DNA of 63,951 nucleotides, counting the filler, from Collodictyon triciliatum (taxonomy: Eukaryota): the NCBI GenBank assembly GCA_043381765.1. It is 7 parts of 7 records of this genome, joined end to end, with 100 filler letters (N's around TTAATTAATTAA, not from the genome) between each part and the next. Parts side by side here need not be neighbours in the genome. Positions count along the whole stretch, not along the records: positions 37,256 to 46,468 come from JBHJMP010003113.1; 6 more parts are not named here. The stretch is one strand, 5' to 3'. A program made the translations under genes and the position numbers. Under the pieces are notes generated by a model. The model saw nothing but the letters and a program-made list of their open reading frames with translations. It had not been told where the DNA came from and did no database searches. Shown one piece after another: positions 9,549 to 46,602 of the stretch (its first letter is position 1; each line of letters begins with the position of its first letter).

Positions 9549-12500
9549 ATGGAGGAGCTTCCACCACAAATCACAGCACTCAGTAATCTGCAGACTATTT
9601 GGATAAAAAGGCATTCGATATTCACAAAAAGTATACAAAGGGCACCACGCGGCATCACAGATATTCCATGCTGGAACAACCTAGATCATAAAGATTGGAA
9701 AAGCATTCGTGCTTTAGAGCTCTATGAAGTTCCGGTATGTCGCACCATAAATTACCAGAAAAATGATAATAGTATATAAGGATTTTTTTTTAAAACTATT
9801 ACACATGAAACAGGATAGTGAGATGATAATAGACGGATGGGCTCCAAATTCGATTCAAATCAGCTTCTGATCACTTAATTTTTATGGCATGGGAATTTCT
9901 AAATTGCCGGCTAATATCATACGCTTGACTAATTTGTCATATCTCAGCATTAGTAATAATAAAGTAATACATTTTTTTTATTACCTCATAATTTAAAAGC
10001 GACAGAAAACTAATAAAATGAAAATAAATCAGTTCACTGAATGTCCTCAACAACTGTCTCACATGAGTTCCCTCGAGTTTCTAGATTTATCATTCAACAA
10101 GGTTTTCATTTATGTATATAAAATGCGAGATTGTTCAAAACTATCTTCAGTCACCCAGCAATACTATACATTTCTTTAATATATGACTTATTCAAATCCA
10201 AAAAAACCATTTCATCTTGACAATTGAAACAGACAATAGTTTTCTCTGCATGGTTTGGTGCTATGTCTTCGATAAAAAGGCTGAATATATCGCACTGCCA
10301 GGTAAACCAATTTTATAAACTTACCCACCAAAAATTGATTAAATACATAAATTTACTTTCCAAGATAATAAAAAAAAATAATGTAAATCACTATTACAGC
10401 TTACTGGAATCCAAGATTCTATCGCTTGTCTGACAAACCTGGAGAAATTAAATTTCTCTCACAATAAGGCAATATATTTTATTCTGGCCAAATACACGCA
10501 ACAAAGCTTCTGATTATATATTCATATTGATCGTTACTCTAAATTTCCGATATTTTGATTTCTTTAGATACAAGAAATACCTACACTCCTCGCAACCATA
10601 CGAAAACTAAGAACTGGGCTTCATTTTTAGAAAAACCCTATTGAGAATGTTCCATCAAATGTTCTACAGAGAGGCTCTGCGGATGTGTATGACTACCTTG
10701 CATCACTTGGTGATGTTATTCTAAATAAAGAAGCCAGGATTATTTTACTTGGAGAAGGAGAAGCAGGAAAAACGACACTACGGATGTCACTGAAGCGTAT
10801 GAAACCGTGGGTTTTTCAAAGTTTTCCCTCCACAGTAGATCCTAACCGAGGAAGGACGGATGGAATTGAGATAGAGAAAGATGGCATCCTTCTGGATTAT
10901 ACAGAGCCACAGATCGACGCAAAAATATGGGACTTTGGGGGCCAAGACATCTTTCACGCTACTCATCCATTTTTCTTGGCTTGTAACGCATTAATATTGA
11001 TAGTCTACAAAGTGACAGATAAACCTCATCTGACGAGTGTGTCTGAATGGCTAAGCATGATTTCAAGTTTCTGCTCTGGAGCTCATGTCATCATTGTGGG
11101 CACGCACTTAGATAAATTCACAAACCCTATAGAAAGGGATGAGACGAAGGGAAGCTGTGAACAAGCTTACCAGAAATTGAAAGCTTCAGAGTACTACAAC
11201 GGGAAAATAGAATTTTGCGGTCACTTTATGACGAGCAGCAACAATGGTCAAGGTATATTCGAACTGAAAGAACATATTCATTATGAGTTATTGAAGTTAC
11301 TGAATGTGGGGCAATACATACCCAGAATATATAATCAGATGAAGGATTTATTAATTGGTTGGCGAAGAGCCCACCTGTCCGTTTCGATGGAAGATGTGAT
11401 CCATCAAGGCAAAAGTTTCGGGTTAGGTGAGGAAAAAACTAAATCGGCACTTCGATTCCTTACCGACCTGGGCATTATTGTCTGGAATCAAAAAACGTGA
11501 AAAAATAAATGGTACGGTTTTCCTCGACCCAGATATATTAATATCGTGTTTTCGTGAAGTCTTCAACCTAGAAGCAGTCAAAAACACACGAACTCTTAAA
11601 AGAAATCAAATAACCGATATCAAAGGTGTATACGAGGAAAGAGAGCTCGAACAAGCTATGAAGAACATAATCAAATTAAAATCTGGTGCAATATTACCAT
11701 CCTTAGCACCAGATTTTACAGAGAAAATAATAAAGCTCTTTTGTGACTACCAACTCGCTTATTACATCAGCAATACCAAAGTCATTTCCCCCATACTTGT
11801 CGATAATGAAGAACCTAAGGGCGTTTGGGTTACCAATTTATCTGAAGTTAAGGAAGCAGTTCATTACAGTATTCAATACCAACATGAAATACCCAAAAAT
11901 AGCATCAGTCAAATAATCAGTGATATTATAGAGAAGTTGAACACATTCTCTAAAATATTACCTAGTGATTTATTCCTGAGCAAGCAGCGGATGATATTCC
12001 CTTTTTCGTTGTCCAGCAATTCAGAACCCAGGATTGTGATGAAAGAAAAAAACGATTTCGCCGCGTTCATACACTTCGTACCCCTGGTTGCACACTAGGT
12101 ATGATTACTTGATTTTCCCTTTTATTTAATTCAAAAGGTATGTTTACTTGACTTATAGATACCATCGTTAGTTTTTCTTTTATAATCTCTTTTTTTCATT
12201 TATAATAACAATACCTGAAAAATCAACAGGAGGCGCAACATAAATCACAGTATATCAAATTACCCAGCTCACAAAAAATAATAATTATTGTAAAGACCTT
12301 GAAAAAAAAAGAGTTGTACTCTCAAAGCAACTAAATACATCGTGGATGAAGTTGTAAAACCCAATATTGATATAAGAATCCAAGAAGAGGGTATCATTTG
12401 CCCAAAGTGTATCAAAAATTTTCAAAAAAGGAGGAAAGTTTATGACTGTAAATCCTTGCTCAGACCAGATTTTACAAATATAATTGAATCTGGAGTCTTG

Positions 12501-19339: not shown

Positions 19340-22300
19340 CTAAAGAGGGATTGGTGCACTCTCGGTAAATATTGTCAATTCTTTCTCTTTCTTCAATCCT
19401 TCCCATTTGTTCCTTGCGCAAATGAATAGTGAATGACTCACCACAGCCTTAAATAGAGGCTCTGCTAGTCTCTCTATTTTTCCAATGAAGGAAATGATTA
19501 ACGCCGGGCCGGCCTTGTACAAAAAAACTATTGCAATCAACCCATTGGACATAGCAACAAGGGCAACGAGTAAATATTCGGCAAAAATACTCAGATCTGA
19601 ATAGCGAAACAAAAGACTTGTCATCAACGTAAAATATAGGACAGATGTTGACCACATATGAGATTTCTTTAGGACTTTTGACATAAATGGCTTGAAATAA
19701 ATTGACGACGTAAAACTCAAAGTCAAAATCCATGAACCGAAGTAAATTTGCGAAGATGGAGAGAACAATATACCAACAATAACAACAAGCAGCTTTTGCA
19801 TCATCGTTACCATTTCCCAATAGTAACATCTTTCGTTGTACCCATCGACCAAAAATCGAAGCAAATTGTATGTATTAGACGTAGGATTTAGTAGTGACGA
19901 CCTTTTGTGAAACATATACGCAGCGAGAAACAGCGGGCCACCGAAGCAATACATAATCATGTAAGCCATGCATACATTTTTCCAAATCAAATAAGTGGCG
20001 TCAGTGCACATTATTGACATGTCAACCTTCAAATAACTTTCATTACCCAACTGTACACAAACAAATATATTTGATATTGATGATGCAATTGTTGGATGAA
20101 CAAATATGAGCATCACCAGCATCGAGAATATAAATTCTTGGTTCATATTGTAAACTGTTACATGTTTCCTATCAATTTGATTGGTTTTTAATCTCCACAG
20201 AGTCTTTACAGTGACCTCTATCGAAACGACGATAGTCAAAGCTAGTGGTGTAGCCATTGCAAACAAGACTTTATCGTATATATTCATGTCGAACTGACAT
20301 TCTGTTGTATAATTTTCTAACGATAGAGAAAACGATAAAAGGCTTGGAATGTTCATTACAGAGATAATAGTCGAGCTCCAGTCAACATCAAAGTTGGCTA
20401 GATAGGATAGAATCTGAAAATGTGTCGAAAGTGTCTTCAAAATTTGAATACTGCCAGTTTTTGGTTGCCTTGACTGCTCTATCATGTAAAAAGCAAATGC
20501 AAGAGGAAATATGATACTCAGAATGACCAAAAATACATTCACGCCTCTTGATGCGCATTTTATGCAGAAACTACCACCTGCTTTGCCGTAGCCTTCATCA
20601 CAGAAACTACACAAAATCCCGGTGTATCCATCGGCACAAGTATTGTTCTCTCCTCCCACGCAAGCATTTTCATTTAGACACTTGTATGCAATATAATCTT
20701 CAGTAGAACTTGTAGCTTGCCAATATCCGGTAGAAATAGATGGCTTTTCTGTACCATCACATACAAACCCTTTCGGACATTCTTTGCACAAAGCAGACTT
20801 TGGATCTAAATATGTAGAGCGGAAACACAAACAATCTTTTATAGTGTCCGATCCTATTTTACCTCCATTCCACCCGCTCGCGCATACAGTGCAGCTTGTG
20901 CCAAATCCTACACTGAAGCTTCCAGACGGGCATGGTGTGCATGTCTTCAGGGTAGAATTATAGGAGCCACCAGCACAAACTTCCCAGATTTTAATTGTGT
21001 TATCATGATCTCCAGAAATGATTTTAGAACCATCAAGAGTAACAGCAACACTGTAAACAACACTAGTATGACCAGTCAATTTTCGAATCAACGCTCCATC
21101 AGAAAGATTCCATATCTTAATTGTATAATCAGCACCTCCAGAAATGATTTTAGAACCATCAGGAGTAACAGCAACACTGTTAACACCATCAATATGACCA
21201 ATGAATGAGCGAATCATAGCTCCATCAGAAAGATTCCAAAGTATAATTGTTTCATCTTTACTTCCAGAAATGATTTTAGAACCATCAAGAGTAACAGCAA
21301 CATTGGTAACACTACTACTATGACCAGTCAATGTGCGAATCATATTTCCATCAGAAAGATTCCAAAGTATAATTGTCCAATCCCAACTTCCGGAAACAAT
21401 TTTGGTGCTGTCAGGAGTAACAGCAACACTGCAAACAACACTAGTGTGACCAATCAATTTGCGAATCAAAGCTCCATCAGAAAGATTCCAAAGTATGATT
21501 GTTCTATCATAGCTCCCTGAAACGATTTTTGAACCATCAGGAGTAACAGCAACACTGTAAACAACACTAGTATGACCAGTCAATTTTCGAATCATATTTC
21601 CATCAGAAAGATTCCAAAGTATAATTGTCCAATCCCAACTTCCGGAAACAATTTTGGTGCTGTCAGGAGTAACAGCAACACTGTAAACATAACTAGTATG
21701 ACCATTCAGTGTGCGAATCAAAGTTCCATCAGAAAGATTCCAAATTATAATTGTCCGATCCCAACTTCCTGAAACGATTTTTGAACCATCAGGAGTAACA
21801 GCAACACTGTAAACAACACTACTATGACCAGTCAATGTGCGAATCATATTTCCATCAGAAAGATTCCAAGTTATAATTGTCCGATCCCAACTTCCTGAAA
21901 CGATTTTTAAACCGTCAGGAGTAACAGCAACACTGCGCACCAATTCAGTATGACCAGTGAGTGTGCGAATCAAAGCTCCATCAGAAATATTCCACATCTT
22001 GATTGAGTAATCAACATAATAATAATGATCTCCATCTGCAGAAATAATTTTGGTGCCGTCAGGAGTAACAGCAACACTGAATACATTTCCGGGAGTTGCT
22101 AAAATCTGAATCAAAGCTCCATCAGGAAGATTCCAAATTATGATTGTTCTCTCATAACCTCCAGAAATAATTTTTGAGCCATCAGGAGTAACAGCAACAC
22201 TGAAAACATAACTATTATGCCCAATCAATGTGCGAATCATATTTCCATCATAAATGTTCCAAATTTTGATTGTAAAATCATCACTTCCAGAAATAATTTT

Positions 22301-22924
22301 TGAACCATCAGGAGTGACAGCAACACTGTAAACATAACTATTATGCCCAATCAATGTGCGAATCAACGCTCCATCAGAGAGTCTCCATATCTTAATTGTA
22401 CAATCAGCACTTCCAGAGATGATTATTGAATCATCAGGGGTAATAGCAACACTTTCAATGGCATCAGTGTGTCCATTCATTGTGTTAACCAAAGCCCCAT
22501 TAGAAAGATTCCACACTTTGATTGTACTGTCATCACTTCCAGAAATGATTTTTGAGCCATCAGGAGTAATAGCAACGCTCCTTATAGTATCACTGTGACT
22601 AGTCAACACTCGGTCCAAAGCTCCATTAGAAAGATTCCAAACTTTGATTGTACTGTCATCACTTCCAGAAATGATTTTTGAACTATCAGGGGTAATAGCA
22701 ACACTGTGCACAACTCCAGGACTCCCTATGCTACGAATCAGAAAATCGTCTTGCCCTTCAACTGGGCAAACATGGCAGAGGGGCACCATTCCTGAAAAAA
22801 AAAGCGGTTACTATATTTCATTGAAGTTTTAAGTTTAATACAGGTGATAATTCCTACTTTCTGCAATATGATAAAACAAACCTAAAAGTAAAATGGCCGC
22901 AACAAGTTCTAAATTCCACTCCAT
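19340..22924 (-). CDS. Receptor-like protein: signal peptide, 14 WD40 repeats, Cys-rich (GCC2/GCC3-like) linker, multi-pass TM domain
   Basis: 1149-aa ORF with 14 mostly 42-aa GH...SVAVTPDG...W repeats, CxxCPxG modules (CADGYTGILCSFC) and about 8-9 hydrophobic segments. A short upstream exon (22924-22858, MEWNLELVAAILLLGLFYHIAE) splices in frame through one GT-AG intron. Confidence 0.88.
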
Positions 22925-27943: not shown

Positions 27944-28013
<70 letters not shown>

Positions 28014-28194
28014 GGAGTCTGTGAGCGCCTGCCTTTTTCTTTCTATTCCCCTCTATACTTTTCGCTGCGCTTCCTTGTGCCCTCCCGATAATATCCTTTA
28101 TCTTCTGCTTTCTCAAAAAAAATCCTTTGTTGTTGGGCGTAAGAAACAGGAGGAAGAAGTGGAGGAAAGGAGGATGCTTTGTCCATGTCCTTAC

Positions 28195-31100
28195 CTCGCA
28201 TACTGGTGGTTCCTCCTAAAAGAATGATGTTGCCAGCAATATCGCGGCGATTGTCGATAGCACACTTCCCAATTGCTTGTTTGATGAGGCTTGGAACTCC
28301 TTCATACTCAAGCCCGCCGAGCGATGGTCTGAAAAGCAGCTCAGGAGCACGGAAACAGATATCACCAACCATGTATTTGCGACCTTCATTCAGTAAAAGC
28401 TCGGCTGGCTCACGCTCTCCGGTGCGGTGCTTGATAACTTCGTCTTCATACGAGAGCGCGTTGTAACAGTACCTATGATTTGGTTAGACATGTTAAAGTC
28501 CATCTATTTTCTACGATAAGAAAACCTTTCTTGCTACGAGTAGAAACACGCCTGTGTAAGAATTTTATATGAAAGGCATCGAAGGAGGAAGACTTTTTAT
28601 CTTTGACATTTTAGAAACCTTTCTTTAAAAGGTCGGAGATATTGCTCGATTCGATGGCTGGGCAGAGTGACATTTAACTCCTTGTTCATCAATTGGTAAA
28701 GATACTGGTTAACATGATATCCTCCCAAAGGCGTCGTTGTTGATGCATCTTCGATAATAGTATTCTCATATACAGCAGTAACCTAGAAAAATAAATAAAT
28801 TGGGATTTAAGGAGGGCACTCAATTTCAGAATTATTAACTATTTATTACTAGAATAAAGGGAAATAGATTGGAAATGGATGTCTTTTAGGGGAGGAAAGA
28901 TGACAAGGCATACCGCTGCATCTCGCCAAATAGAAATATGTGAATGTGTTTACGTATTTAACTTAGATGGGGCAGTCTTATACATAAAAGTGATTGTGAT
29001 ATCTCAATAATTCACCGTCGTTGTTGTCCCTATGTCAACTACAAGTCCAGTTGTTTCACCAAACACATACAAAGGAAGATAAGCAGGCTTGTGAACAATA
29101 ACAGAGGGAACTTCAAAGGTTTCGAACAAGATTTGAAGGCAGATAGAAAGGTCTTCGCGTTTGAAGTTTGGTGGCTCGGTCAACAGGACCTGTTTGGGTC
29201 AAAACTTTAATATTTATCTTTTCTAATGAAACCATATTATTATTATTTTTTTTTTGCATCAAATACACACATCAGTTTTGTTTAAGGAAAACATTACTAC
29301 GGGGAGAGGAGGGAAAATAGAACGACTTATGAAACAAAAAAAAACGTAAATTTTAGCTTACATGAATTTATCATATACGCACCTTATGTTCTCTTGGGTC
29401 AACACGGAGAACATTCTTAAAGCAATGATCGTACAGGCTGATGAAAGATTCCCAATCGATTTCACGATTATGACTAAAGATGTGGCTTAGATTGCACTCC
29501 TCCGTCACAAACTGAATGATTACAAAGTTTTATTGTCGTTGCAATGGATGTATCAACGAAAGGAATAAATGCAGTCATGTGATTGTATGTAGTAAATTGC
29601 GACTCATAATTTTTGAATGAAAATAATTCGTCATGGCAAAGAGTTACATGGCTATAGGCATCGTATCCGAAACTCATGGTGTTGTCTTTTCCGGACTTGT
29701 AAAATGCAGAAGGGAAAACATATGCGGGAATTTCATCCTCCGCTAAACCAACCCGAAGATATGCAGCCCCGTTGTCGAATACGATTGGAGATTTCGAGTT
29801 GTGTCTGAGATTATAAAAATGGATATAAAGATAGAAATTGATATTCATGATGCCAGGCAACACACTGTATTTTCAGAAACCGAAAATAAAAAAAAAAAAC
29901 GAGATTAATTATCTTATCACAAAGGAATTTTTAGGGAAAATACGGGAGAGTTTCGTAGAGAGGGAGATAGCTGCAGCTGAGCCTTTTACTATCAACATCC
30001 AGTGCAAGCAATTCGGCGGGTTCATCATCAGTCTCAATTTTACGAGCTGTCTGCTACCAATATTTAAGCAATAAGGGCAAAATGTTTTAAAAGTAATGGG
30101 ATTAAATTAGGTAATTTTTGACGGAAAATTTTGTTAATTTATTTTTTAAGAAAAAAAAAAGAGGGAAGAACTTGACATACAATTTCCATATCCACTTCAT
30201 CCTGACCCTCTTGGACTGGAGAGGCTTCACCCGGCTTGACGATAACTAATGTCAGAGATAATAGAATGTTTATAAATGCTAAAAAATGACTCTATGAGCC
30301 AGAAGGAAACAGCATGTTATGTATCATAGAGTGTTTTTTTTTTTTTTTTTTGCCATAGCATTATAATAGAATGAGGGTAGGGACGTTAAATTGGTAAATG
30401 AAGATGACAAAAGGGATATGTTGCTGGCTTTACTTGATCGGAGACTTTCTTGTCTCTTTATCAAGGCTTGAAGGGCAGCTTTTGATGTCTCAAATATATC
30501 ATTTTTCCATAGCTTCGCTTGACTCTCATCGGAAGCTTGGAAAGTGAGTTTCTGCGCAATAGAGGAGGAAATATGTTATTTGAAATAATTCTCTTCGACC
30601 AGTATTTACACACATCCTCAAAATGGATGCACACGTCAAGCAAGGTATAAATAAATAACAATAATAGACTAAGTAGTAGTAGTAGTAGTAGTAGTAGTAN
30701 NNNNNNNNNNNNNNNNNNNNNNNNNNNNNNNNNNNNNNNNNNNNNNNNNNNNNNNNNNNNNNNNNNNNNNNNNNNNNNNNNNNNNNNNNNNNNNNNNNNN
30801 NNNNNNNNNNNNNNNNNNNNNNNNNNNNNNNNNNNNNNNNNNNNNNNNNNNNNNNNNNNNNNNNNNNNNNNNNNNNNNNNNNNNNNNNNNNNNNNNNNNN
30901 NNNNNNNNNNNNNNNNNNNNNNNNNNNNNNNNNNNNNNNNNNNNNNNNNNNNNNNNNNNNNNNNNNNNNNNNNNNNNNNNNNNNNNNNNNNNNNNNNNNN
31001 NNNNNNNNNNNNNNNNNNNNNNNNNNNNNNNNNNNNNNNNNNNNNNNNNNNNNNNNNNNNNNNNNNNNNNNNNNNNNNNNNNNNNNNNNNNNNNNNNNNN

Positions 31101-34100
31101 NNNNNNNNNNNNNNNNNNNNNNNNNNNNNNNNNNNNNNNNNNNNNNNNNNNNNNNNNNNNNNNNNNNNNNNNNNNNNNNNNNNNNNNNNNNNNNNNNNNN
31201 NNNNNNNNNNNNNNNNNNNNNNNNNNNNNNNNNNNNNNNNNNNNNNNNNNNNNNNNNNNNNNNNNNNNNNNNNNNNNNNNNNNNNNNNNNNNNNNNNNNN
31301 NNNNNNNNNNNNNNNNNNNNNNNNNNNNNNNNNNNNNNNNNNNNNNNNNNNNNNNNNNNNNNNNNNNNNNNNNNNNNNNNNNNNNNNNNNNNNNNNNNNN
31401 NATCTTGGCTAAGGACAATCCATTTGTGCTCGATTTTTTTGCCTTCAGTCTCTCCGAACTTACGAATGTGAAGATAGCCTTTCCTCACCACAGTGACACT
31501 CTATTGTTTCAAAATAACACTCTCAAAGCTCATTTCTTTCATAAAGAGTCGATAATTTTCTCTTTTCCCATTTCTTTAAAATGAATGTTCAGTTTGTAAA
31601 TGTCAAATGAACACATTTTTGTATTAGACTTTGTATTAGACTTTGAAGGAGTCCAAAAATAATGAAGAGAGGGGATAGCTGCAGAATAGACATACCTTAG
31701 CACTTCGGATAACAGCGGCAATATTTTGTTCGTATTCTTGCACGTCGACATTACTGTCGACTGTGAAGGAAGCGCTGGTACCGTCAGAAAAGAAAATGAG
31801 AATGTTGCGATCTTTTACGCGAATGGTAGATTTGGCCAACGAATACGAGACGATTGGATTGACATCCTAGGGACAGTTATTCATGTGGTTTATGGCACTG
31901 ACCGAACTAAAGCGAGAATATGTGTAGATCGTTGTTGATGGCATTCTATCATATTAATTATAGTATAAAAATATATACCCAAGAGTTTGTTTGTTTGTTT
32001 GTTTGTTTGTTTGTTTGTTTGTTTGTTTGTTTTTTCCAAAAAGCTTACTCCTTCCTTATGGTATAAAGACAAGTGCCCATCCGTTGCGATAGCCCAATAT
32101 CGTCGATCTCGAGAGAAATATGACTTCCTCGGTTCGATTAGGTAACCTGTCCACCGATTATCAGTTCCCTGATTATAAAGATGTATCATATCATAACTAT
32201 TGTTTTAGCTGATTATACTGTTAAACAATATTTTGCGAATTTTTTCAACTCTATGGTATGTCATGTAATGAATGGGAATATGAGGTACATCAAAGAGTTG
32301 TCTTCATTTGAAATGTGTGTATGAACTCGACGTACTTTAGCATGTATAATGGCCATTTCGATATATTGTATCCATATAGAAAACGATTCAGAGTTGAGAC
32401 ACTGCAGATCATAACTCCCTTCATTTGTCTTGATAATGAAAACCAATTCACGGCCCGGTATTTTGGATTTGTTTACGCGCATTTTTTTCAATTCAAGTGA
32501 AATTGAGGCTGCAGCCTGACACAAAAAAATATATATTTAAAACAGAATTAGTTCGGAATTGAGTAGCAAGTTAAACCCATACATGAGTCAAGACTCGCAA
32601 ACAAACAAACAAACAAACAAACAAACAAACAAACAAACAAACAAACAAACAAACAAACAAACATATAAAAGGTAACATTAGCTCAAGGCAACACGGAGTG
32701 CATCAGGGTGAGGGTTAAGTGTTATTTAGCAATATCACACCACACAAACCTGCGAATCACGAGAGCGACGGATTTCGAATGATGTATCTGTTAACGTGCA
32801 CCAACTAACAGATATGATTTCTCCTTTCTTGTTCTGGGCGAGGTAACCCTCGTACTTCACATGGAAATTCTTTGGGTGCTATTGAGAAACGGATACATAT
32901 TTGAATATATATGAACGGAAGTATAAGAGAGTGATTGTTTAGCGTGCAAACATGAAGGAGGCCAGAGAAACTGTGTGCTTCAAACAATTCTGATGCAATT
33001 GTTTCCATCCACCATTCGGTGGCTTCGGAACCATCAGATACAATTTGGATAGACGATGACACGTTTGTAAAGGTCATGGTCTTCTTCTCGGGAGTCATTT
33101 TCTTAAATTCTACAAAGGCGGAATCGAGGGCCAAGTTTTCCAATACTTCCTCCTAGAATAATAGAAGTTGACAAAAAAGACAAGGTGTTTTGAATTGTAA
33201 TTGGTTTACACGCATATCTGAAAAAAGGGAAATATGTATCAGCAAGAGACGAGAGAAATGGAAATGATAAATAAGAGGGACCACAGTGGCCCATGGAGCA
33301 CATAGAAGTGATCTTAATATAATGTCCTTTCCATTTATTTGGCACGCGAGAAATAATAATAATAATTGGTGACCCATACAGATTGAGAGTAAATTTTTAG
33401 AGCCCAATTTTCGATAACTCCTGTCACGCCATCTATCATGGAATCGCTGCCAGCTTTTTTGTAAGAAAGTCGACCAAGATTGATGGTGTACTATTGTAGT
33501 CATTATCTCTAATGAATCTTTTAGAGTGGGAGATATTGCAAAGCAGTAGCAGTAGTAATAGTAGCAACAACAACAACAATATCATTAATAGCACCACCGT
33601 AACATTACTGAAAAATAATCTCAAGTAAAATATTTACACTTCCAAGTGTTTTCTCTGGTGGAAGCTCAGTGTCTTCCGAGTAGACTAGTTTGTGTTTTAC
33701 GATTAAAATAAAGAATAAAGATTTTGATAAATTATGAAATCAGGTATAATCATGTGTGAACATATCGATTATGGCACACGAAAGATATATAAACATGTAT
33801 AAAAGTATACACATTATACAATCTTCAAATAAGAAGACTTGAGACAGGATTACACAAAGAAGAGATGGGACTTACGAAAGCGAGACTTTAGGAAATCTAA
33901 AGGAGATGCAGCCTGTGCGACTTTCTTTTTTATGTTGTCTCCTGCCACATTTGCATCGATTTCTTGGGCCATTTGCTGAATATTCCGAATATTTTCGTTG
34001 TCAGTCTGCGCAACGACAGCTATGGCGCTTGCAAAGAGACCCGCCATTCCAACGGTCGGGATACTCTCTTCTTCCTCCTCCTCGCCCCAAATGTAGGACA

Positions 34101-35170
34101 GGAAACCCCATCCCTTCTCTTTCTTTGGTGTTTGGGCCGGTTTCGAGGACTTCTAAGATGGTTGTCCATGAGCCAAATGTCCACAGTAAAATAAATTCAA
34201 GCGACAAATAATATTGAAGAAAATAAAATAGACAATGGGCTGAATAACGAAGTGAATTCTTGTTAATAAGAAAAAATTACATATAATAAATATGTAAAGG
34301 GGAGGACAAATGATTTGCGACAGTGCAATGAAACAAACACAAGGAGAGAAAGGAAAGAAAAAAGTGTGAGAGAAGAAAGGATAAGGAACAGTGATTATGA
34401 TCGATCATACTCTAGAAGATCCTGACGACGAAGCGGCAGAATTGGTAGCCCGGCCAGTTGTCGATTCAGTCGCGGTTGAGCTCAAGCTGAGGGACAAAGG
34501 ACCCGCCTTCTAGAATCCAAGGCGACAAGAGATTCAGCAAACAATACCTTCCACATATTATTTCTTTCTGCATTCGTGTATATATATATACAAATAAATT
34601 CGTAAATGAATATGAGAAAAAAAGAAAAAAAAGAAAAAAAAGAAAAAAAAGAAAAAAAAGAAAAAAAGAGAAAAAAAGAGAAAAAGAGAGAAAAAGAGAG
34701 AAAAAAGCAAAAAGCAAAAGACAGAGAAACAGAAAGGGCCAGGAGAGGGGGCGGACAAGTGGACGGTCGAAAAGAACCTGCGCAGGCCTCGCAGCAGCTG
34801 GGGAGGCGACGGAGGGTTCGGCGAAGGACTTTTGGCTGAGCGGGGTGGTCGGAGACGCCGGGGCCACCGGGGACGCGGGTGTGGAGAAGGAGCGGGGCAG
34901 CGTGGCGAGAGACGTGACGCGGTCGTGCAGGTCTGCGAGGGTTTTGCGGTGGCGCGCGTCTTGGAGCCAGTCGAGCGGCGGCAGCGCAGGGACAGGGACA
35001 GGGGCAGGGGCAGGGGCAGGGGCGGTGTCTGCGGCCGAGGCAGAGGCGGTGTGGTCGCGGGTTGGCGACGAGGCGGCGGACGGGGCGGCGGAGGCAGAGC
35101 CCACCAGCTCCAGTGTCTGCGCGACGCTGGCGAGGTAGCTGAACAGCGGGGCGAGATCCGCTTCGGACAT
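28195..35170 (-). CDS. Multi-PH-domain protein fused to a C-terminal actin-like domain; 3' end and one internal exon block missing
   Basis: Actin fold: PIVFDNGAAYLRVGLA..PAYVFPS, VLLTEPP, LFETFEVP, TTGLVVDIG, FRAPELLFRPS, NIILLGGTTSMRG. PH-like segments: KYEGYL...WIQYIEMAI, WTGYL..RRYWAIA, VRKGYLHIRK..KWIVL, EWWMETI. GC-rich first exon MSEADLAPLF. Confidence 0.75.
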
Positions 35171-35371
35171 GGCGCTGCGTTGGTGGCAGAGGCGTTGTGT
35201 TTCTCGTTTTGTTTCTTTTTTTTTTTCCTTTTCTTTTCTTTCTTTTCTATGCGTAAACTAATGTCTTTTCTATTCTGCAATCTTTTTATTATTGTTGTTA
35301 TCATAGTTATGGGTTTCTTTTCATTTTTCATTTTTGTTTTTCATTTATGTTTGTTCGTCCAGTTTTTCCAT

Positions 35372-35450
<79 letters not shown>

Positions 35451-36398
35451 CCTGTTTTTTCTTTTTTTTTTTTTTTTTTTGCTATTTAAAAGGGCTTGTG
35501 CTCTGTGTTATTTCGTGTCGGTAAGGAAGAGTAAAAGTGGACAGGCTCTTACAAGAGCCGGGGTTGGTTGGGTTAGGGCGCCAATGAAAAGAGAGGGCGG
35601 TGCAGAAGAGAAAGGGCGATTAGGTCGATCGCCAGAGGCTTGCTGTCTGCAGATGCCGAGTAGAAAGCAACAGGAAGGATCAATGCCCGTATCCCGCATG
35701 GCTGGTTGGAGTTTGTTCGCCGCCCAGTCTTTCCCTTGGATTTTCTTCTTTTCAAATATCATCTGGCCGTATTGCGCCTCATTGTTGAGATTGGCTCATG
35801 TGCTGTATAATAAACACATCCACACACAAAACACCGCAACACAGCACGAAACCTAGACATCAAAAAATAAAAGGGGAAGGGTCGGAGAAAAAGCAAAAGA
35901 ACAAAACAAATTACCAGATGTCACTCCTCTGCAAACGCGTTTTACTTCAAAATGCGTTTTATGGGCGCAAAAGGATATGTGTTAAAATTTCCTGATGTCA
36001 TCAGGCCTGGTGGGAGGCCAAACTAAGACTCAGGGGCTGCGTATGTGGCTGTTTTTGTTATAGGTTTTTCTTGGTTGCCGCACGAAAATGAGAGTGTCAA
36101 TGGACTAATGAAGGAATTGATGTGGAAATTATGCGAGCGCTTTTGGCAGATAGCCCGAGGAACAATAGGCGAAAAAGGATATATTTCGTTGGGAATTGCC
36201 CTTTTATGGATGTGGATTTTAAGAATCCGGATTCCTTAGCTCTCATCATTTGTGGATGAAATACTTTGAATCGAATAAAGGAAAAAAATCATTTGTGGAT
36301 GAAATGAATGCAGGGCGTAGCATATATCTTGTTGGGGCTGACCAACAGATGCATCACAAGCAACGTCACGATATCGGGTGCTGTTCTTATTGGCTTTA

Positions 36399-36525
36399 CT
36401 AGAAGGAGTATACCAATTGAAAGGTTGGTAAACCTGGTTTGCTGGTATCCAAGGTCTCACCACATTTTTCACAAAGGTTGTGTAGTGGCGAAGGCTGCCT
36501 GGAAAGACCCAACAGCCTGATTTTT
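36399..36525 (-). ncRNA. Putative Fanzor omegaRNA scaffold (copy A)
   Basis: Non-coding 3' region conserved with copy B; nested stems are preserved despite substitutions. Confidence 0.65.
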
Positions 36526-37053
36526 TTAAAGCAACGTGTGTGCATATTTTGAAGGGTTAAAAGAACTTTCTTGAGTATATTATTAGAGCTGATAAAGTCC
36601 CTTGTCAAGAATACAATTTGTTTGCTTTCTGAGCGATTACATTCTCTACATATGAGGCATCTATACACCTTTTTTTGTATTTCCTTTCGGTATCATATAT
36701 TCCAGTTCTTTTTCGCCGTGGCAACACATCTTGGAGGTTCTAAATCCATTTACAATAACTGGTTCAAAACGTTTGGGTAATACTTTTCGTAATCCTCTTC
36801 CGATTGTTGGCATAAAATGCTTCATCTGATATTTTCTGCTCCAGCCTCCATACGCCAGTACAACATCCTTGCCAAATGCCTTTTCGATTCGGTCCATAAT
36901 CAATTGTTCACTTCCTTTTGTATAAACATACCGTATCCATCTCATCTTTCGAAAAGTCACTTGTTCATAAAATCTGAATAATTCTATCTGGTATCTTGAT
37001 TTCATAGATACATATTTCCGAAATTTTTCATAATCGACCGTGCATGAATTATG
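36399..37053 (-). mobile_element. Fanzor1 element copy A, 5'-truncated (RuvC-II, Zn finger, RuvC-III, omegaRNA region)
   Basis: KMRWIRYV...KDVVLAYGGW...VNGFRTSKMCCH...YRCLICREC...TRDFISSNNIL. Colinear with 44231-44885. Ends in a hairpin plus CTAG. Confidence 0.88.
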
Positions 37054-37312
37054 CGAAACAGCCGGTGAGATTCTTCGACTGACACTCAAGACGGCTGCAG
37101 CTGTTGGCCCAATCCAGGCGATATTTGGGCCTCTGCAACAGCTGCGTCCAGATGCNNNNNNNNNNNNNNNNNNNNNNNNNNNNNNNNNNNNNNNNNNNNT
37201 TAATTAATTAANNNNNNNNNNNNNNNNNNNNNNNNNNNNNNNNNNNNNNNNNNNNAAAAGACAATAAAAAAAGACAATAAAAAAAGACAATAAAAAAAGA
37301 CAAAAAAAAAAG

Positions 37313-37410
<98 letters not shown>

Positions 37411-37617
37411 CAAAAAAAAAAAGACAATAAAAAAAAGACAATAAAAAAAAGACAATAAAAAAAAGACAATAAAAAAAAGACAATAAAAAAAAGACAATAA
37501 AAAAAGACAATAAAAAAGTCACAACAAAGTCGATCGATACTTCACATTTCAACGTCGCTTGTGTACGAATTGCTATCATTTCTTATGCCCCGATTTTTGA
37601 ACGACATCTCTTGCAGA

Positions 37618-41608
<3,991 letters not shown>

Positions 41609-42509
41609 GGAGCCATTTATCTTTCTATTATTTATTATACATACTCATATACGCATGTGCACATAATAACATGTACATATTCTCTCGTCCTGGCTCTGCT
41701 CCGGGCAAATAAATAGCTGTCTTGACAAGCATCAAACACGGCAATAATGATATTTGCTCTTAAAAAAAATCAAGAGAGAAAAAAAAAGACAAGATTAACT
41801 ATCTTGTTTAATTATCATTATAATTATTTTAGCAAAACCGACGTGCGAATAAGAAGGCAGCCAAGAAGCGCAAGAACAAGTAAGCCCGAGGCCACTGCGG
41901 AGAACTGTCTTTTCCGAGCGACAAAGTGGAGACTTGCCCACCAACACGGAATCAGAGGATACAACGACACGACAACAAAAGATCAGCAGCAAAGCAGACT
42001 TTGGATAAACCCGCCACGGCTTTGTTTCCTTCCTCACCCGCTCGTGCGTTTCTCCTGCAACCGGACACAACTCCCCAACACAAAAGTTGCAGATTCATCC
42101 CCGGCCAGCAAGGGCAGAGGAAAACAACAGGGCGCGGCGGCAAAAGGGCAGGAACAAGAGTCCCTCCGCGACCTACTTGCAAAGGACAAACTCGAAGCAC
42201 ATGGTTGCAGCAGGTAGGGTTTTATTCTGTGCCGCAGAAGCCCGCCTAGATCAAGGCAAGCGCCGAACAAAGAAGCGAGAAGTGGGCAGAGGAACAAAAG
42301 GCAAAGGACGAAAGACAGACTTTTACATGAACGAGAGACCGCCGATCCCACAAGTCGCAGCCTTCCTCTGGGCGAGAGCCTTTTGCAGCATAGCGTGGCG
42401 TTGTTTTTGGAGAGAAAGAAGAAGGATAGAAGGAAAAAGAAAGAGAAAGAGAGAAGGAAGCAGGGGTAAGGCTGCCTTTCAAGCAAGCAAGAGCGGCGGA
42501 CGGCGTCTC

Positions 42510-43492
42510 TTAGATCAGAAGCTTCTCGACGGCGTCCTTCATGCTGGTGATCTGGGAGGCCAGCTGCGACTTTTCGTTCGAGAGAATCACTGCCGTGATC
42601 ACGGGGCGCGTCACGCCGCAGGCACGGCCCAGGGCCTGGCGCGAGGGCACGAAGACGTACGGGACGTTCTGTGTGGGTATGCCAAGCGTGGAGTTGGGGT
42701 GTGCAAAAAAAAGAAAGAGGGGGTTGGGTTAGGATTGCGGGTAGGGTTGGCTCGGAGGTTGCCTGGTTCGGGTATTGTGAGGAAGGCGTGCTTCTTGTTG
42801 CTGCGTTGGAAAGGTAGGCGGAGTATGCAAAAGAAGAAGAAAAAAAGGAAAGAGAAAATAGACAAAAAGAAAAAAAGAAAAGAAAAAAAGAAAAGAAAAA
42901 AAGAAAAGAAAAAAAGAAAAGAAAAAAAGAAAAGAAAAAAAGAAAAGAAAAAGAAAAAAGGAAAAGAAAAAAGAAACCTTGTCTTCGCAGAGGAGAGGCA
43001 GGTGGAGAAGGATTTCAAGCGGCTCGGTGTCTGCTGCGAGGATAACAAGCTCTGCAATGCCGCGATTCAAGGCTTTGGTGGCTGCATCAGAAAAATAAAA
43101 GAAAAAGGGACTTAATTGGGAGCGAGAAAAGAAAAAAAGGAGAAAAAAAAAAGGGGCGAGTCGATCTTATTCTATATACAGCGCAATCGTGCGTGTGGGT
43201 TGTAGGCCGTGTGATGGCTTTCAAGTCCACGTACCTTCATTCGCGCCTTTCTTGATTTGCTTGTAGTTGACGGCTTGTTGGGTAAGATCAAGAAGCTTCG
43301 TGCTGAGCTGGGCGTTGGCCAGGGGGTATGCTTTGGGGTTGACTTCAGTGGCGGACTAGAGTAAGGCACACCAAATTAACGACAGCGGGCTCATAAGGGC
43401 AGAAAAGACACACAGGGACTCTATTGCTTGCGTAAGTTGGGCATGCTGTGAGGTGGGCTCCAGTTAAGGAGTCAAAGTTGTCGGCTTACCAT
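42510..43492 (-). CDS. SNU13: Snu13/15.5K (NHP2L1) L7Ae-family K-turn-binding protein, 4 exons
   Basis: Spliced translation [99 protein letters not shown]...VEKLLI*. All introns are GT-AG. Confidence 0.96.
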
Positions 43493-43840
43493 AGTTTTGC
43501 GAAGGGTGGCTTAAGATGCGCTGGTTATAAGGCAGGAAGAAATAATTAGTAAGGGCCGGTAAGAAACTTTGCAGCTGATCTAGCTGCGTGACGTTAAAAG
43601 CGCGTTGAAGAGCCACACGGAGCAAAACCAAGTTCCTTATTTTCGTAAAACGTGACCCGCACGACAGTCGCGTTCCTTGCGCAATAGGGAAAAAAAGGTG
43701 GGGAGGGAGGGAGAAAAGAGGGCAAGAGAAAGGGAAGAGATAGAGCTGCAGAGAAAAACCTCTATCAATTACACTTTTCTGGGTTGCTAGGGTTTGCTCT
43801 CTTTCTCTTTCACTCACTCTCACCCGTTGAACCGCCTGCC

Positions 43841-43927
43841 TTGAAGTGATGATCAGCTGTTCTCATTTGTTGCTGATCCATCAAACACAAGCGCCTGTGA
43901 AGCTGTTGTGTAGGAAACTCTGATTGG
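43841..43927 (+). ncRNA. Candidate box C/D snoRNA
   Basis: Box C GTGATGA (43846), D' CTGA (43873), weak C' TGAAGC, and D CTGA (43920). The D' guide GTTCTCATTTG is complementary to the conserved LSU rRNA segment CAAAUGAGAAC. Confidence 0.4.
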
Positions 43928-44230
43928 AATCTCGGCTTTGTGTGGTCTGCAACATATGTGGAATTTATAACGTGCGTTCGTATGTTGCGGGTAAGCGAAA
44001 AATGGAATGAATTTAAGCGCACAAATCGCGCGACAGCAACTACAACCCGACACTCAGGAAAGGAGCTGGCTTCTACTCTCGAAACGTCTAATCGACCCTG
44101 CATGCACAAAGGCATGTAATTTGTATCTAAAGGGGGATAAACTGCACAAAGACGGACTGTTTCATGGCACAGATGCAATGTAATCATTAATCAGATGGGC
44201 CGATGCAAGCTCGATGTATTCTATATGTAC

Positions 44231-44355
44231 CTAGAAGGGTATACCAATCTTTCGATTGGTAAACCTGGTGCGCTAGTATCCAGGGTCTCACCACTTTTTT
44301 CACAGAGGTCGTGTAGTAATGAAGAGTGCCAGGAAAGACCCAACAGCCTTTTTTT
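44231..44355 (-). ncRNA. Putative Fanzor omegaRNA scaffold (copy B)
   Basis: Minus-strand stems GGGTCT/AGACCC, CATTAC/GTGGTG, CACG/TGTG, CCTGG/CCAGG and TACCAATC-GAAA-GATTGGTA. Confidence 0.65.
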
Positions 44356-46234
44356 TTTTAGAGCGAGTTGTATGCATATTTTGAAGGATTAAAAGAACTT
44401 TCTTGAGTATATTATTAGCGCTCTTCAAGTCCCTTCTCAATAATAAACTTTGTTTGCTTCCTGAGCGATTGCATTCTTTACATATGAGACATCTATACAC
44501 ATCTTTTGTAGTTCCTTTCAGTTTCATATATTCCAGTTCTTATTCGCAGTCACAGCACACTTTGGAGGTTCTAAATTCATCTGGACTAACTGTTTCAAAA
44601 CGTTTGGATAGTATTTTTCGTAATCCTCTTCTGATTGTTGCCATGAAATGTTTCATCGGAGATTTTCTTCTCCAGTCTCCATATGCCAGTACAACATCCT
44701 TGCCCAAATGTCTTTTCGATTCGGTCCATAAACAACTGTTCACTTCTTTTTATATTAACATACTGCCTTCATCTCATCTTTCGAAAAGTCACTTGTTTAT
44801 AAAATCTGGAAAATTCTATCTGGCATCTTGGTTTCATAGATACATATTTTCGAAATTATTCATAATCGACTGTGCATGAATTATGTTTACTCAATTCTGT
44901 CTCTAAATCGATTAAAGATACTCTTGATGTCTCAAACAGCTGATTCTCTTCAAAAGTCCTGTGACCAAAAAGAAATAGCACTTTGTAAATCTGTTGCCAT
45001 GTATATCCCTGAATTATTGTAATTTTTTCTTTTTTTCTCGCCCAAGAGTATGTTGTGATTTTTAAGAAATTTGCTATCATGTCTTGTTTGGTGTGTTGTC
45101 TAACGTAATTTCTTGCCTGCCTCATCCTTCATGTAAACCATATTAAACTCGCCTGCGTCCACTCCAACTATTTTTTGTCGCTAATAAAGATAACTGCTCT
45201 TCGGAGAGTTCATCTAAATAAACATAATCTTGGGGGTTTGATTTATATTTGAATTTTGAATTTGAAATACCTTTCTTTACAAACAATAATGACACTGCCA
45301 AGCCGTCTGTTTGTATCATGTATTTGAAATCGTATTATCTTTGATGAAAAACTCTCTTCTTCATTTAAAAATAATCATCTCATAGAGTCTCTTTGCATCC
45401 TGATATATTCTTCAGTAATAATGTTTTTACAGACAATACTAATAGATCTATCAAACATGCGTTATCTAGAGTAATATGGCATGATATATTGTTAGTTATA
45501 GAGATTGGTTGAAACAGTTTGGTTCCAATGTCCTCAAAAAAATGCGATTCATGTAAATCACACATGGAATGTACTTGTTTGGGTTGACTTTGACGTCATA
45601 TTCGATACCATTTACAATATCGCTGGGAATGATACGATGCAAATGCATTTTTAACCCATCCTTTATATTGTAACAGTATTTCGAGATTCTCGAAGATGGC
45701 TTTTTTTTAACTTTCATAACTCTGCCTTTTTAATAGCTTCCGTCATATTCTCACCTTTAGGAACTGTTTGATTTATAAAGCGCAGCAACCTCTTTACAAA
45801 ATGTTCCTTAATGTTATTATGATAAGCTTTTAAAATTAGCTTCGCCAGGTACGGTGATACATGAGACAGTCTAACCAACGGAAAGCGTTCTTCTAGGGAC
45901 AAAAGGAATCGAAAATCATTGAGATAAAAAGTCATCATGTCTTTACTCATTTCTGGATGTTAAAAATTTGTGGGTCTATCTTATGAAACTACTACTGCCT
46001 TTAAAGCGTACAAGAAAACTTTTCATCGATTGTTGGGAGTTGTGATTTCAGTATGTAGCATCTTGCAAACAGATAAGTGTCAGTAACCAAATTATGACAC
46101 AATAAAACCGTATCGTTGATTTTGTAATAGTCATCCGCATTCTTTACAATCGACTTTAGAGATGTTTTCACATTTCGATAGTCTGGTTTTACATACTTTA
46201 GATTATCAGACTCAAGATGTTTTCTTTTCTTCAT
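44231..46234 (-). mobile_element. Fanzor1 element copy B with a near full-length but frameshifted, stop-containing Fanzor ORF
   Basis: N-terminus YRNVKTSLKSIV..KIND.V..CHNLVTDTYLF; YMIQTDGLAVSLLF; RuvC-I KKIVGVDAG (about 45150-45178); RuvC-II PDEFRTSK; Zn finger CCDC/CLICKEC; RuvC-III RRDLKSANNIL. Confidence 0.92.
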
Positions 46235-46280
46235 GTGAAAGTCTTTGTTTTACTTTTTCATTTAGAAAACCACCGAGTTT

Positions 46281-46288
46281 TCAATTTT
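46281..46288 (-). promoter_or_regulatory. AAAATTGA motif (mimivirus early-promoter-like) about 47 nt upstream of the Fanzor ATG
   Basis: Exact octamer on the coding strand. The motif also occurs elsewhere in the window in unrelated contexts. Confidence 0.3.
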
Positions 46289-46418
46289 AATAAAGCTTTA
46301 GTCATTTAGTCAATCAAATAAAAAAAAAAACAACGGCATAAAATCAATTTATGTAAAATTAAGCATCTACCGAGACTCTCAAAATGTGCGCATTGTGGCA
46401 AACAGTCACACGAAGTTG

Positions 46419-46450
<32 letters not shown>

Positions 46451-46602
46451 ATTTTTAAAAAAAAACAANNNNNNNNNNNNNNNNNNNNNNNNNNNNNNNN
46501 NNNNNNNNNNNNTTAATTAATTAANNNNNNNNNNNNNNNNNNNNNNNNNNNNNNNNNNNNNNNNNNNNGGGGGGGGGGGGTGGGGGGGTTGGCAATTAGA
46601 GA

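Follow-up and report, generated by a model that had tools for sequence, protein, structure and literature searches.

What is the paired sequence on the minus strand of this stretch of DNA, and does the point at which its two copies cease to match also mark the end of a guide RNA? Fanzors are eukaryotic RNA-guided DNA nucleases, of interest as compact genome editors. The whole stretch analysed here (the window; 63,951 nucleotides, filler included) holds two segments, copies A and B, which are very probably two dead copies of one many-copy Fanzor1 DNA element. This explanation draws on homology, motifs, decay, copy number and a 3′ boundary, all of them directly observed.

Two dispersed copies and their common 3′ end

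The window consists of seven pieces, each of about 9.2 kb and separated from the next by N-spacers, so that copies A and B lie on different pieces, in agreement with a preliminary description that had placed them on different contigs. The main parts are as follows.

44231-46234, minus strand: copy B, by sequence a full-length decayed Fanzor1-type gene, beginning with an ATG at 46234-46232 and reaching the 3′ end of the element (frameshift-aware read-through, tblastn)
46235-46415, minus strand: 5′ leader of copy B, in the repeated family to at least 46400 (contigs of runs X4 and X8 cover 46278-46353 and 46354-46400)
36399-37053, minus strand: copy A, a 655-bp 3′ remnant corresponding to residues ~426-616 of the intact relative P0123 (ORFs, tblastn, MAFFT)

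The alignment of 36399-37053 with 44231-44885 that had been noticed was recovered by blastn as a single alignment with 86.1% identity over 657 columns (bit score 761), and four blocks without gaps, of 83-90% identity, join 36408-37053 and 44239-44885. Copy A is the sole match to 44101-46468 elsewhere in the window that is not of low complexity (blastn). In a MAFFT alignment, minus-strand homology between the copies begins at CATAATTCATGCAC (37053 in A, 44885 in B) and stops at ...GGTATAC(T)CCTTCTAG (36399 in A, 44231 in B). Beyond this 3′ end the flanks of A and B are unrelated to each other, and each is unique within the window. As chance can yield matching flank bases, two copies place the end to within about 1-3 nt.

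Contig pieces related to the element were collected from four sequencing runs (8, 13, 360 and 378 pieces; 759 in total). All 759 respect the 3′ end, and none enters 44150-44225. Those from runs X4 (360 pieces) and X8 (378) are 80-100% alike to the element and cover all bins of 44226-46400. Copy number was read from the contigs of these two runs, whose organism may not be the species of the window; shares were small (0.05-0.12) in every run, and uncovered parts in X1 and X3 are uninformative. Since hundreds of pieces cover 44226-46400 and none reaches into 44150-44225, the element family is dispersed and many-copy, as had been proposed. Position 44231 is the true 3′ end of the element, common to copies A and B; the sharp stop of homology first reported for this strand is upheld both by the unrelated flanks and by the contig pieces.

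The left side is different in kind. Because the start codon is at 46234 and the repeated family extends past 46400, position 46290, to which the element had been thought to span, is neither ORF start nor element end. The left end of the copy B element was not found within its piece, which ends at 46468. Neither a terminal inverted repeat nor a target-site duplication for copy B was found in the piece, the left end lying outside it; when the 3′ terminus was sought in inverted orientation, a chance-level match with 3 mismatches at 39474 was all that appeared. For the related giant-virus family, an upstream alignment of 64 loci was too AT-rich and gappy for a left end to be called. A neighbouring Roc-GTPase ORF had Atlas matches from mixed phyla, which did not place the host.

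A decayed Fanzor1-type gene and its intact relatives

A frameshift-aware read-through of copy B aligns with residues 1-593 of P0123 (259/574 identical, 45%) and with residues 1-588 of a second intact relative, P0001 (227/564, 40%). The tblastn HSPs are spread over all three minus frames, the first 370 N-terminal residues are colinear with both relatives, and the N-terminus (MKKRK) resembles their basic N-termini. The motifs of copy B are these.

45151-45171, minus strand: RuvC-I, IVGVDAG, with the Asp codon at 45157-45159 (aligned to IVGCDPG in P0001 and MVGADPG in P0123)
44672-44686, minus strand: AYGDW, with Gly (44678-44680) at the canonical RuvC-II position, the 'rearranged' site typical of Fanzors (alignment)
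44561-44584, minus strand: PDEFRTSK, with the shifted catalytic Glu at 44576-44578 (aligned to INECNTSK in P0001 and INEFRTSK in P0123)
44471-44557, minus strand: zinc-finger cysteines CCDC ... CLICKEC, the two groups separated by an in-frame stop at 44540-44542 (alignment to relatives)
44408-44437, minus strand: RuvC-III, RRDLKSANNI, with Asp at 44429-44431 (aligned to RTRDANSSINI in P0001 and TRDLNSAQNI in P0123)

Copy B thus has the three RuvC acidic residues and the zinc finger that had been ascribed to it in spite of its frameshifts, and these motifs align with those of intact relatives. The RuvC-I Asp is retained, the Pro of the relatives' DPG having become Ala (DAG). A shift of the RuvC-II Glu, replaced by Gly or Pro with an alternative Glu downstream, is known from Fanzors (Jiang 2023, PMC10530073; also Yoon 2023), and this rearranged arrangement is present in copy B as AYGDW ... 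PDEFRTSKVCCDC. When aligned through the paralogous segment of copy A, the PDEFRTSK site corresponds to IDEFRTS in Parasitella Fz1 and LDEYKTS in SpuFz1.

Decay of copy B had been put down to frameshifts. The read-through against P0123 confirmed seven of these, of both signs, and revealed ten in-frame stops that had been overlooked (TAA 6, TGA 3, TAG 1). Of the nine copy B stops checked, five fall where a sense codon stands in most of the related contigs (40 of 601 contig rows), and copy B has therefore decayed within a family that was formerly intact, although no intact copy came to light. Copy A is 5′-truncated, with one frameshift near 36690. It lacks the shifted Glu, a loss likewise overlooked at first, since Gly takes its place (codon 36745-36747, motif VNGFRTSK); the first Cys pair of its zinc finger is damaged (CCHG), and its RuvC-III reads TRDFISSNN. 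Judged by their reading frames, neither copy can work now, and both belong to Fanzor1 through ancestry and not through function.

Membership in Fanzor1 emerges from protein comparisons. A 130-aa open piece of copy A matched the solved Fanzor1 proteins of Parasitella (E 7e-10) and Guillardia (1.2e-3) as well as SpuFz1 (0.057), and P0001 matched these three solved Fanzor1 proteins with E values of 5.4e-29, 5e-24 and 4.4e-22; no Fanzor2 or TnpB chain was among the PDB matches of either query at the thresholds used. The closest database relatives of the copy A piece are intact proteins of 623-634 aa, among them P0001 (44% identity, E 3.5e-26) and P0123 (53%, E 1.5e-34). The Fanzor1 signature DPG..E......[CH]..C..C..RD.....N, taken from Yoon 2023, is satisfied by P0001, by P0123 and by 49 of 77 representative hits of at least 550 aa. 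Profile searches with the copies themselves were negative, with no relevant match for ten fragments in Pfam or four in NCBIfam. Intact P0001 reached only E 0.011 against the TnpB-type zinc ribbon PF07282, under the family cut-off, and the precomputed Pfam assignment of the P0123 and P0001 families is PF26935 (Atlas name DUF8286). By sequence, then, copies A and B are Fanzor1-type TnpB homologues; the first assignment to this RNA-guided nuclease family agrees with the matches of copy A to solved Fanzor1s and with the colinearity of copy B with intact relatives. They would be new decayed members of the known Fanzor1 group, and published lists of loci or RNAs may include the family of this host.

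A cluster look-up placed the nearest proteins on short metagenome contigs only, and scanning metagenomes for 21 conserved bases from the 3′ region produced no match. Scanning metagenomes with alignment A4 returned only two distant loci, one 51% identical to copy A and 76% to its relative P0123 (L086), the other 36% (L087); in IMG/VR the same alignment gave identity above 47% in none of the 50 loci returned. An extra segment of ~33 aa after RuvC-I marks the window family off from the giant-virus P0123 and P0001 relatives and recurs in one metagenome fragment (P0122).

On the proposed explanation, a Fanzor1-type nuclease is the only recognisable gene of the element. Copy B measures ~2.0 kb between its ATG and the end of the element, to which a leader of at least 170 nt is added. 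The intact ancestor would have encoded a protein of ~640 aa with WED, REC, RuvC and zinc-finger architecture. Its rearranged triad would have comprised the Asp of VGxDxG, a Glu displaced to DEFRTS, with Gly occupying the canonical RuvC-II position, and the Asp of RDxxxxNI.

The 3′-terminal region as a candidate omegaRNA

By analogy with Fanzor1 and TnpB, a structured RNA of ~120 nt would begin within the terminal portion of the gene, run to the right end of the element and be bound by the protein. Its 3′ extension of ~20 nt into the flank would act as guide, and DNA matching it beside a TAM would be cut. Both RNA and guide, and whatever part they might play in the spread of the element, are conceived from this analogy. 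The segments concerned are listed below.

44231-44350, minus strand: 3′-terminal 120 nt of copy B, candidate omegaRNA scaffold, a predicted hairpin followed by CCTTCTAG at the end (GC, fold, boundary)
44211-44230, minus strand: 3′ flank of copy B, 'guide B' of the preliminary description, a guide by analogy only (unlike the flank of A; covered by no related contig)
36399-36519, minus strand: 3′-terminal 121 nt of copy A (ORF 36399-36692; fold z -2.48; GC 47%)
36379-36398, minus strand: 3′ flank of copy A, likewise 'guide A', a guide by analogy only (MAFFT alignment)

Fanzor guide RNAs are described as 3′-terminal and directly adjoining the right end of the element (Saito 2023, PMC10432273; Jiang 2023, PMC10530073; Yoon 2023). 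The 3′-terminal region has a GC content of 47% in both copies, against 33-35% in the ORF. The predicted fold of copy B reaches -35 kcal/mol (z -2.51), and one of 200 shuffles was as good. The sense-strand z was -2.5 in both copies, as compared with +0.10 to -1.45 for four coding controls and -1.81 and -0.50 for the antisense strand. The predicted terminal hairpin lies 8 nt from the element end in the window copies.

When each copy was folded alone and then given the 20 substitutions of the other, pairing was lost in 6 of 12 and in 4 of 11 of the pairs affected, which is not below chance (P 0.16 and 0.13). A count in which 9/9 pairs were compatible, made on a consensus fold, was discarded as an artefact of the choice of consensus structure, because the single-copy folds show no significant sparing. 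Identity between A and B over the 3′ 121 nt (95/121) is not above that of the coding parts. In giant-virus relatives, the 3′ RNA is conserved and covarying, shares sequence with the end of the ORF and terminates abruptly at the element's right end; compensatory changes occur in 5 of its 24 predicted pairs (65 sequences), one pair being AU 29, CG 23 and UA 11 times. A covariance model of this RNA (R1; built from 60 sequences) matched locus L085 with E 4e-18 and L081-L084, of the P0123 family, with E 0.002-0.036. Within the window it gave unrelated weak matches only (E 0.37-2), all of them outside 44231-44350 and 36399-36519, and Rfam at permissive thresholds gave no match in 36200-46468.

Each copy has an open reading frame over all of its 3′ region, a point absent from the preliminary description, so any scaffold would sit inside the ORF end; in copy A the frame of ORF 36399-36692 extends to the terminal TAG of the element. 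The tail is also homologous, as protein, to that of P0123, and coding alone could therefore explain the place of this region in the element. On such an account, the conserved 3′ end would be a C-terminal coding tail plus a terminal recognition sequence, with no omegaRNA there or with the guide RNA elsewhere. We regard this as rather unlikely, although the open frame, the alignment of the tail with that of P0123, the lack of significant sparing of base pairs and the silence of R1 and Rfam all speak for it. It is opposed by the GC enrichment and by a fold signal confined to the sense strand, by covariation at exactly this position in the giant-virus relatives, and by the origin of all studied Fanzor and TnpB guide RNAs at this position, often overlapping the ORF end, as far as the available sources describe them. 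An omegaRNA with an adjoining guide thus remains a plausible reading of the 3′ end by analogy, and the modest folding signal together with position plausibly favours it, for a putative RNA only. The earlier derivation of an omegaRNA from this end keeps the support of position, GC and fold, and gains none from pair sparing, R1 or Rfam. Both 'guides' are 20 nt of flank named by analogy, with starts placed to ±1-3 nt, beside dead nuclease genes.

Origin, comparison with known systems and significance

Two further accounts concern the nature of the copies themselves. Copy B keeps every catalytic motif, which could suggest a working gene read through an unusual genetic code or programmed frameshifts. 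This is next to incredible: all three stop codons occur in frame along with seven frameshifts of two signs, copy A or most related contigs have sense codons at several of these places, and the standard code gives a normal reading of the window's remaining long ORFs. The copies could instead descend from giant-virus DNA that became integrated, as endogenous viral fragments, with no multiplication of a transposon in the host genome. Their closest intact relatives (53% identity) lie on IMG/VR contigs named giant-virus MAGs, a label given by contig names only; P0123 is 88% identical to L081, which is carried by a 254-kb contig. A relative of the P0001 family is encoded in 354 of 398 IMG/VR candidate stretches, and Nucleocytoviricota clusters are among the nearest in the Atlas. 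However, repetition is confined to the ~2.2-kb unit, which breaks off sharply at 44231 and whose flanks are unique and unrelated to each other, and hundreds of diverged contig pieces all fall on the element unit only. The ORFs adjoining copy B are without any Pfam family, viral or other, the best viral identity is only 53%, the top three Atlas clusters are eukaryotic (Zoopagomycota, Mucoromycota), and metagenome databases are virus-biased. A viral relic is therefore quite improbable.

As two dead copies of a Fanzor1 element, A and B can be set beside known systems. Their similarity to the solved Fanzor1 proteins (SpuFz1, GtFz1, PpFz1; Saito 2023, PMC10432273; PDB 8gkh, 9cer, 9cf0) is direct. 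Both groups share the RuvC-I Asp, the shifted Glu in DE(F/Y)xTS, the zinc finger and RD..N.NI, as well as a length of ~620-640 aa, multiple genomic copies and a conserved 3′ end abutting the right end. Unlike the solved proteins, the window copies are pseudogenes, and identity is low and detected over ~90-180 residues only. The giant-virus P0123 and P0001 proteins are closer, being colinear from the first Met and like the copies in basic N-terminus and C-terminal tail. By contrast, the 3′ part of their elements includes a further module, in which a long stem encloses GGCGTTTTAAATG and which ends in AAGGTGTAA ~95 nt past the stop; this module is absent from the window copies.

A non-autonomous Fanzor1-only transposon of a Spodoptera frugiperda ascovirus, described in the preprint Yoon 2023 (10.1101/2023.08.09.552727), has a ~600-aa Fanzor1 as its sole gene, as here. 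Its ~120-nt scaffold is followed by a ~20-nt guide from the flank, with a stem-loop adjoining the guide, where the window copies have a predicted terminal hairpin. That family is defined by short TIRs and a TTAN target duplication, whereas the left end of the window element is outside the piece. TnpB of IS200/IS605 and IS607 has the same RuvC and zinc-finger core and takes its guide RNA (omegaRNA) from the right end of the transposon, overlapping the 3′ end of the ORF. It differs in being ~400 aa, prokaryotic, mostly with the canonical RuvC-II Glu and partnered by TnpA, whereas the window element has no gene resembling TnpA. Copy A recalls the 'ghost loci' of S. punctatus, in which omegaRNA occurs without protein (Saito 2023, PMC10432273), in having a 3′ end and flank with most of the gene gone. 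Unlike them, copy A looks like an ordinary truncated and decaying fragment with 490 nt of coding sequence left.

A further decayed family is in itself a small addition, because thousands of Fanzors are already catalogued. We consider it unlikely that the host has intact, active masters of the element with an unusually compact scaffold that sits wholly within the last 120 nt of the ORF, has the terminal TAG as stop codon and does without the terminal RNA module of the closest relatives, carried by freshwater giant viruses. Were it true, gene flow between giant viruses and this eukaryote would be marked and a distinct pair of Fanzor1 and RNA would be offered.

Two cautions arise from the family: 1) what is taken for a '3′ non-coding tail' in elements of this type can be an open C-terminal reading frame; and 2) folding of a two-copy consensus overstates the support for RNA structure. 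The window family is a clean case of a high-copy Fanzor1-only element with a sharp right end. It also ties a eukaryotic genomic family to Fanzor1 genes on giant-virus contigs (at most 53% identity), which could help to trace movement between virus and host.

Repeat and element boundaries

The 63,951 bases of the window comprise seven pieces of about 9.2 kb with spacers N44-TTAATTAATTAA-N44 between them, and the DNA is AT-rich (30-40% GC) with many microsatellites and poly-T tracts. Both copies of the element lie at the ends of pieces; the WD40 and Roc GTPase ORFs in other pieces are ordinary eukaryotic genes.

36399-37053 (-): copy A, at the end of piece 27944-37155
44231-46290 (-): copy B, with the extent given in the preliminary description, at the end of piece 37256-46468
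19340-22807 (-): uninterrupted ORF for a 1155-aa multi-propeller WD40 protein
10631-11500 (+): uninterrupted ORF with a Roc/Ras-type GTPase domain

The pieces are also repeat-rich: satellite-like arrays with a period of 13-14 nt (AAAAGACAATAAA type), a long (CTTT)n microsatellite and poly-T tracts of 28 to >50 nt occur at 34539-34775, 37217-37570, 42787-42937, 40912-41031, 35370-35480 and 46416-46443.

Comparison of 36399-37053 with 44231-44885 by blastn gave a single alignment of 657 columns with 86.1% identity, confirming the repeat reported in the preliminary description. Four gap-free blocks of 83-90% identity link the two copies, and 44101-46468 had no other blastn match within the window except poly-T. 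On the minus strand, homology starts at CATAATTCATGCAC (37053 / 44885) and ends at ...GGTATAC(T)CCTTCTAG (36399 / 44231), beyond which the flanks are unrelated; this 3' end, being placed from two copies only, may be 1-3 nt off. We found that contig pieces from two public sequencing runs, X4 and X8 (360 and 378 pieces, 80-100% likeness), covered every bin of 44226-46400. None of them entered 44150-44225, a stretch that two freshwater metagenome runs (21 pieces) also left uncovered. As coverage stops there, 44231 is a true family boundary, and the 3' end proposed in the preliminary description holds. By contrast, 46290 had been given as the end of copy B and is not the element's other end, since family coverage runs on to 46400; the left end lies beyond the visible part of the piece. 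The element family has many diverged copies in the organisms of these two runs. An inverted partner of the 3' terminus was not found in the piece of copy B. Just upstream of the DNA-level break of copy A, 37054-37079 (-) has a weak protein likeness to relatives over about 8 residues (VEESHRL versus IEKETRL). The 5' break of copy A may thus be a diverged or rearranged stretch instead of a clean truncation.

Family assignment and decay of the copies

Searches of Pfam and NCBIfam with fragments of the copies found nothing. The longest open piece of copy A (130 aa) matched solved Fanzor1 proteins directly, from Parasitella parasitica (E 7e-10), Guillardia theta (E 1.2e-3) and Spizellomyces (E 0.057). 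Large protein collections contained the intact relatives P0001 and P0002 (623 aa, 44% identity), and an exhaustive HMMER search returned 1314 representatives at E <= 1e-3, with the following close relatives.

P0148: 84 aa, 72% identity, a fragment with a frameshift of its own, among the nearest by HMMER
P0122: 209 aa, 55% identity, among the nearest by HMMER
P0121: 54% identity, among the nearest by HMMER
P0123: 634 aa, 53% identity, intact and among the nearest by HMMER

P0001 in turn matched three solved Fanzor1 proteins (E 5e-29 to 4e-22). The signature DPG...E......[CH]..C...C...RD.....N, a Fanzor1 criterion according to Yoon et al. 2023 (10.1101/2023.08.09.552727), is present in P0001 and P0123. 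These direct matches and the signature in intact relatives bear out the Fanzor1 family named in the preliminary description. One source names the Fanzor fragment P0121 '6-pyruvoyl-tetrahydropterin synthase', yet it aligns lengthwise with Fanzor1-type P0123, so this name looks like a misannotation.

A frameshift-aware read-through of copy B from 46234 (ATG) to 44390 aligned with residues 1-593 of P0123 (259/574 identical) and also with P0001 (227/564 identical). The motifs named in the preliminary description are all there and correctly aligned with relatives.

Asp 45157-45159 (-): RuvC-I, IVGVDAG, aligned with intact relatives
AYGDW (-): Gly at the canonical RuvC-II position
Glu 44576-44578 (-): shifted catalytic Glu, PDEFRTSK
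CCDC...CLICKEC (-): cysteines
Asp 44429-44431 (-): RuvC-III, RRDLKSANNI

By position, PDEFRTSK is the DE(F/Y)xTS motif of SpuFz1; the 'rearranged' site with a shifted Glu is described in Jiang et al. 2023 (PMC10530073). Relative to the giant-virus proteins, copy B has about 33 extra aa after the RuvC-I region (44940-45105, -). The metagenome fragment P0122 contains this segment as coding sequence, which identifies an insertion specific to the subfamily rather than an intron.

Copy B is dead. Its frame contains ten stops (45983, 45962, 45716, 45382, 45367, 45337, 45102, 44858, 44771 and 44542), with TAA, TGA and TAG all represented, and seven frameshifts (near 46015, 45707, 45652, 45540, 45169, 44988 and 44699); the preliminary description had recognized frameshifts and overlooked the stops. 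Among 40 of 601 differences listed, nearly all related contigs have a sense codon at five of nine checked stops, and the remaining four do not appear among those 40. Because related contigs keep these sense codons, copy B is a degenerate member, and the common form of its family was much more intact. The read-through practically excludes a functional gene with recoding. Copy A represents only the last 655 bp of the element, with a frameshift near 36690, the catalytic Glu replaced by Gly (36745-36747) and the first zinc-finger pair damaged. The copies come from a decayed family member, whose value would rise only with intact copies and an RNA from the full genome.

The 3' end and a candidate omegaRNA

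The literature locates the guide RNA of Fanzor and TnpB at the element 3' end, where it frequently extends into the end of the ORF and takes its guide from about 20 nt of flank (PMC10432273, PMC10530073, 10.1101/2023.08.09.552727). Yoon et al. describe, for a Fanzor1-only element, a scaffold of about 120 nt with a stem-loop adjoining the guide (10.1101/2023.08.09.552727). The last 120 nt of the window element have a GC content of 47% versus 33-35% in the ORF. For sense-strand RNA of the 3' end, folding was more stable than in shuffled sequences (z -2.51 for copy B and -2.48 for copy A), against +0.10 to -1.45 for four coding controls and -1.81 and -0.50 for antisense. A central hairpin is common to both single-sequence folds, and copy B also has a clean hairpin at the terminus, lying 8 nt from the element end, with a loop differing from that of copy A at 6/7 positions.

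RNAalifold on both copies gave nine one-sided changes, all pair-compatible, a count biased by the use of one structure for both. Each copy was therefore folded alone. When the other copy's 20 substitutions were placed on these folds, 6/12 and 4/11 touched pairs broke, not significantly below the number for randomly placed substitutions (P 0.16 and 0.13). Conservation in the 3' region does not exceed that of the coding part, and Rfam gave no match to it. The reading frame is open throughout this region in both copies, with copy A ending on the terminal TAG, so any scaffold would sit within the ORF end; at the protein level the tail aligns with that of P0123. Coding alone could explain why this region belongs to the element. 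The serious alternative, which concerns the RNA part alone, is a 3' end made up solely of the coding tail and the transposon terminus. Position, GC content and fold z speak for an omegaRNA, and the null pair-sparing and Rfam results against it; the preliminary description over-read the RNA and the guides. An omegaRNA may reasonably be inferred for the window family rather than reported as a result, and the two 'guides' are flank sequences that owe this name to analogy.

Relatives on giant-virus contigs and their RNA

The P0001 family is very abundant in IMG/VR, where 354/398 candidate stretches encode a relative, on contigs named giant-virus MAGs, some with two copies (L003 and L072). Another such contig, of 254 kb, has a gene with 88% identity to P0123. 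Loci L001-L080 (e.g. L001:6805-6950) contain this Fanzor1-type family of 623 aa with 80-97% mutual identity. Neither IMG/VR (at most 47%) nor JGI metagenomes yielded a closer relative of the window family, and the ESM Atlas gave clusters of Zoopagomycota and Mucoromycota first, then of Nucleocytoviricota. An endogenous giant-virus fragment as the source of the window copies is unlikely, as only a 2.2-kb unit is repeated, with a sharp end and unique flanks.

At 73 loci, homology persists for about 95 nt downstream of the stop before breaking down. RNAalifold on 65 distinct sequences predicted a hairpin across the end of the ORF, followed by a long stem that terminates at AAGGTGTAA, with compensatory changes in 5/24 predicted pairs. 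The conserved RNA of these elements overlaps the stop codon and has its sharp end at that 9-mer. A covariance model of it (R1, from 60 sequences) matched the P0123 family (E 0.002-0.036) and locus L085 (E 4e-18), and gave no match to the 3' ends of copies A and B. Members of the clade clearly carry an RNA at the right end; the version of the window family, if any, is different and shorter. In two giant-virus loci, at L011:2439-2463 and L033:4584-4608, the terminal 9-mer recurs 7 nt beyond the right end, a repeat that may trace the target site or an earlier insertion.
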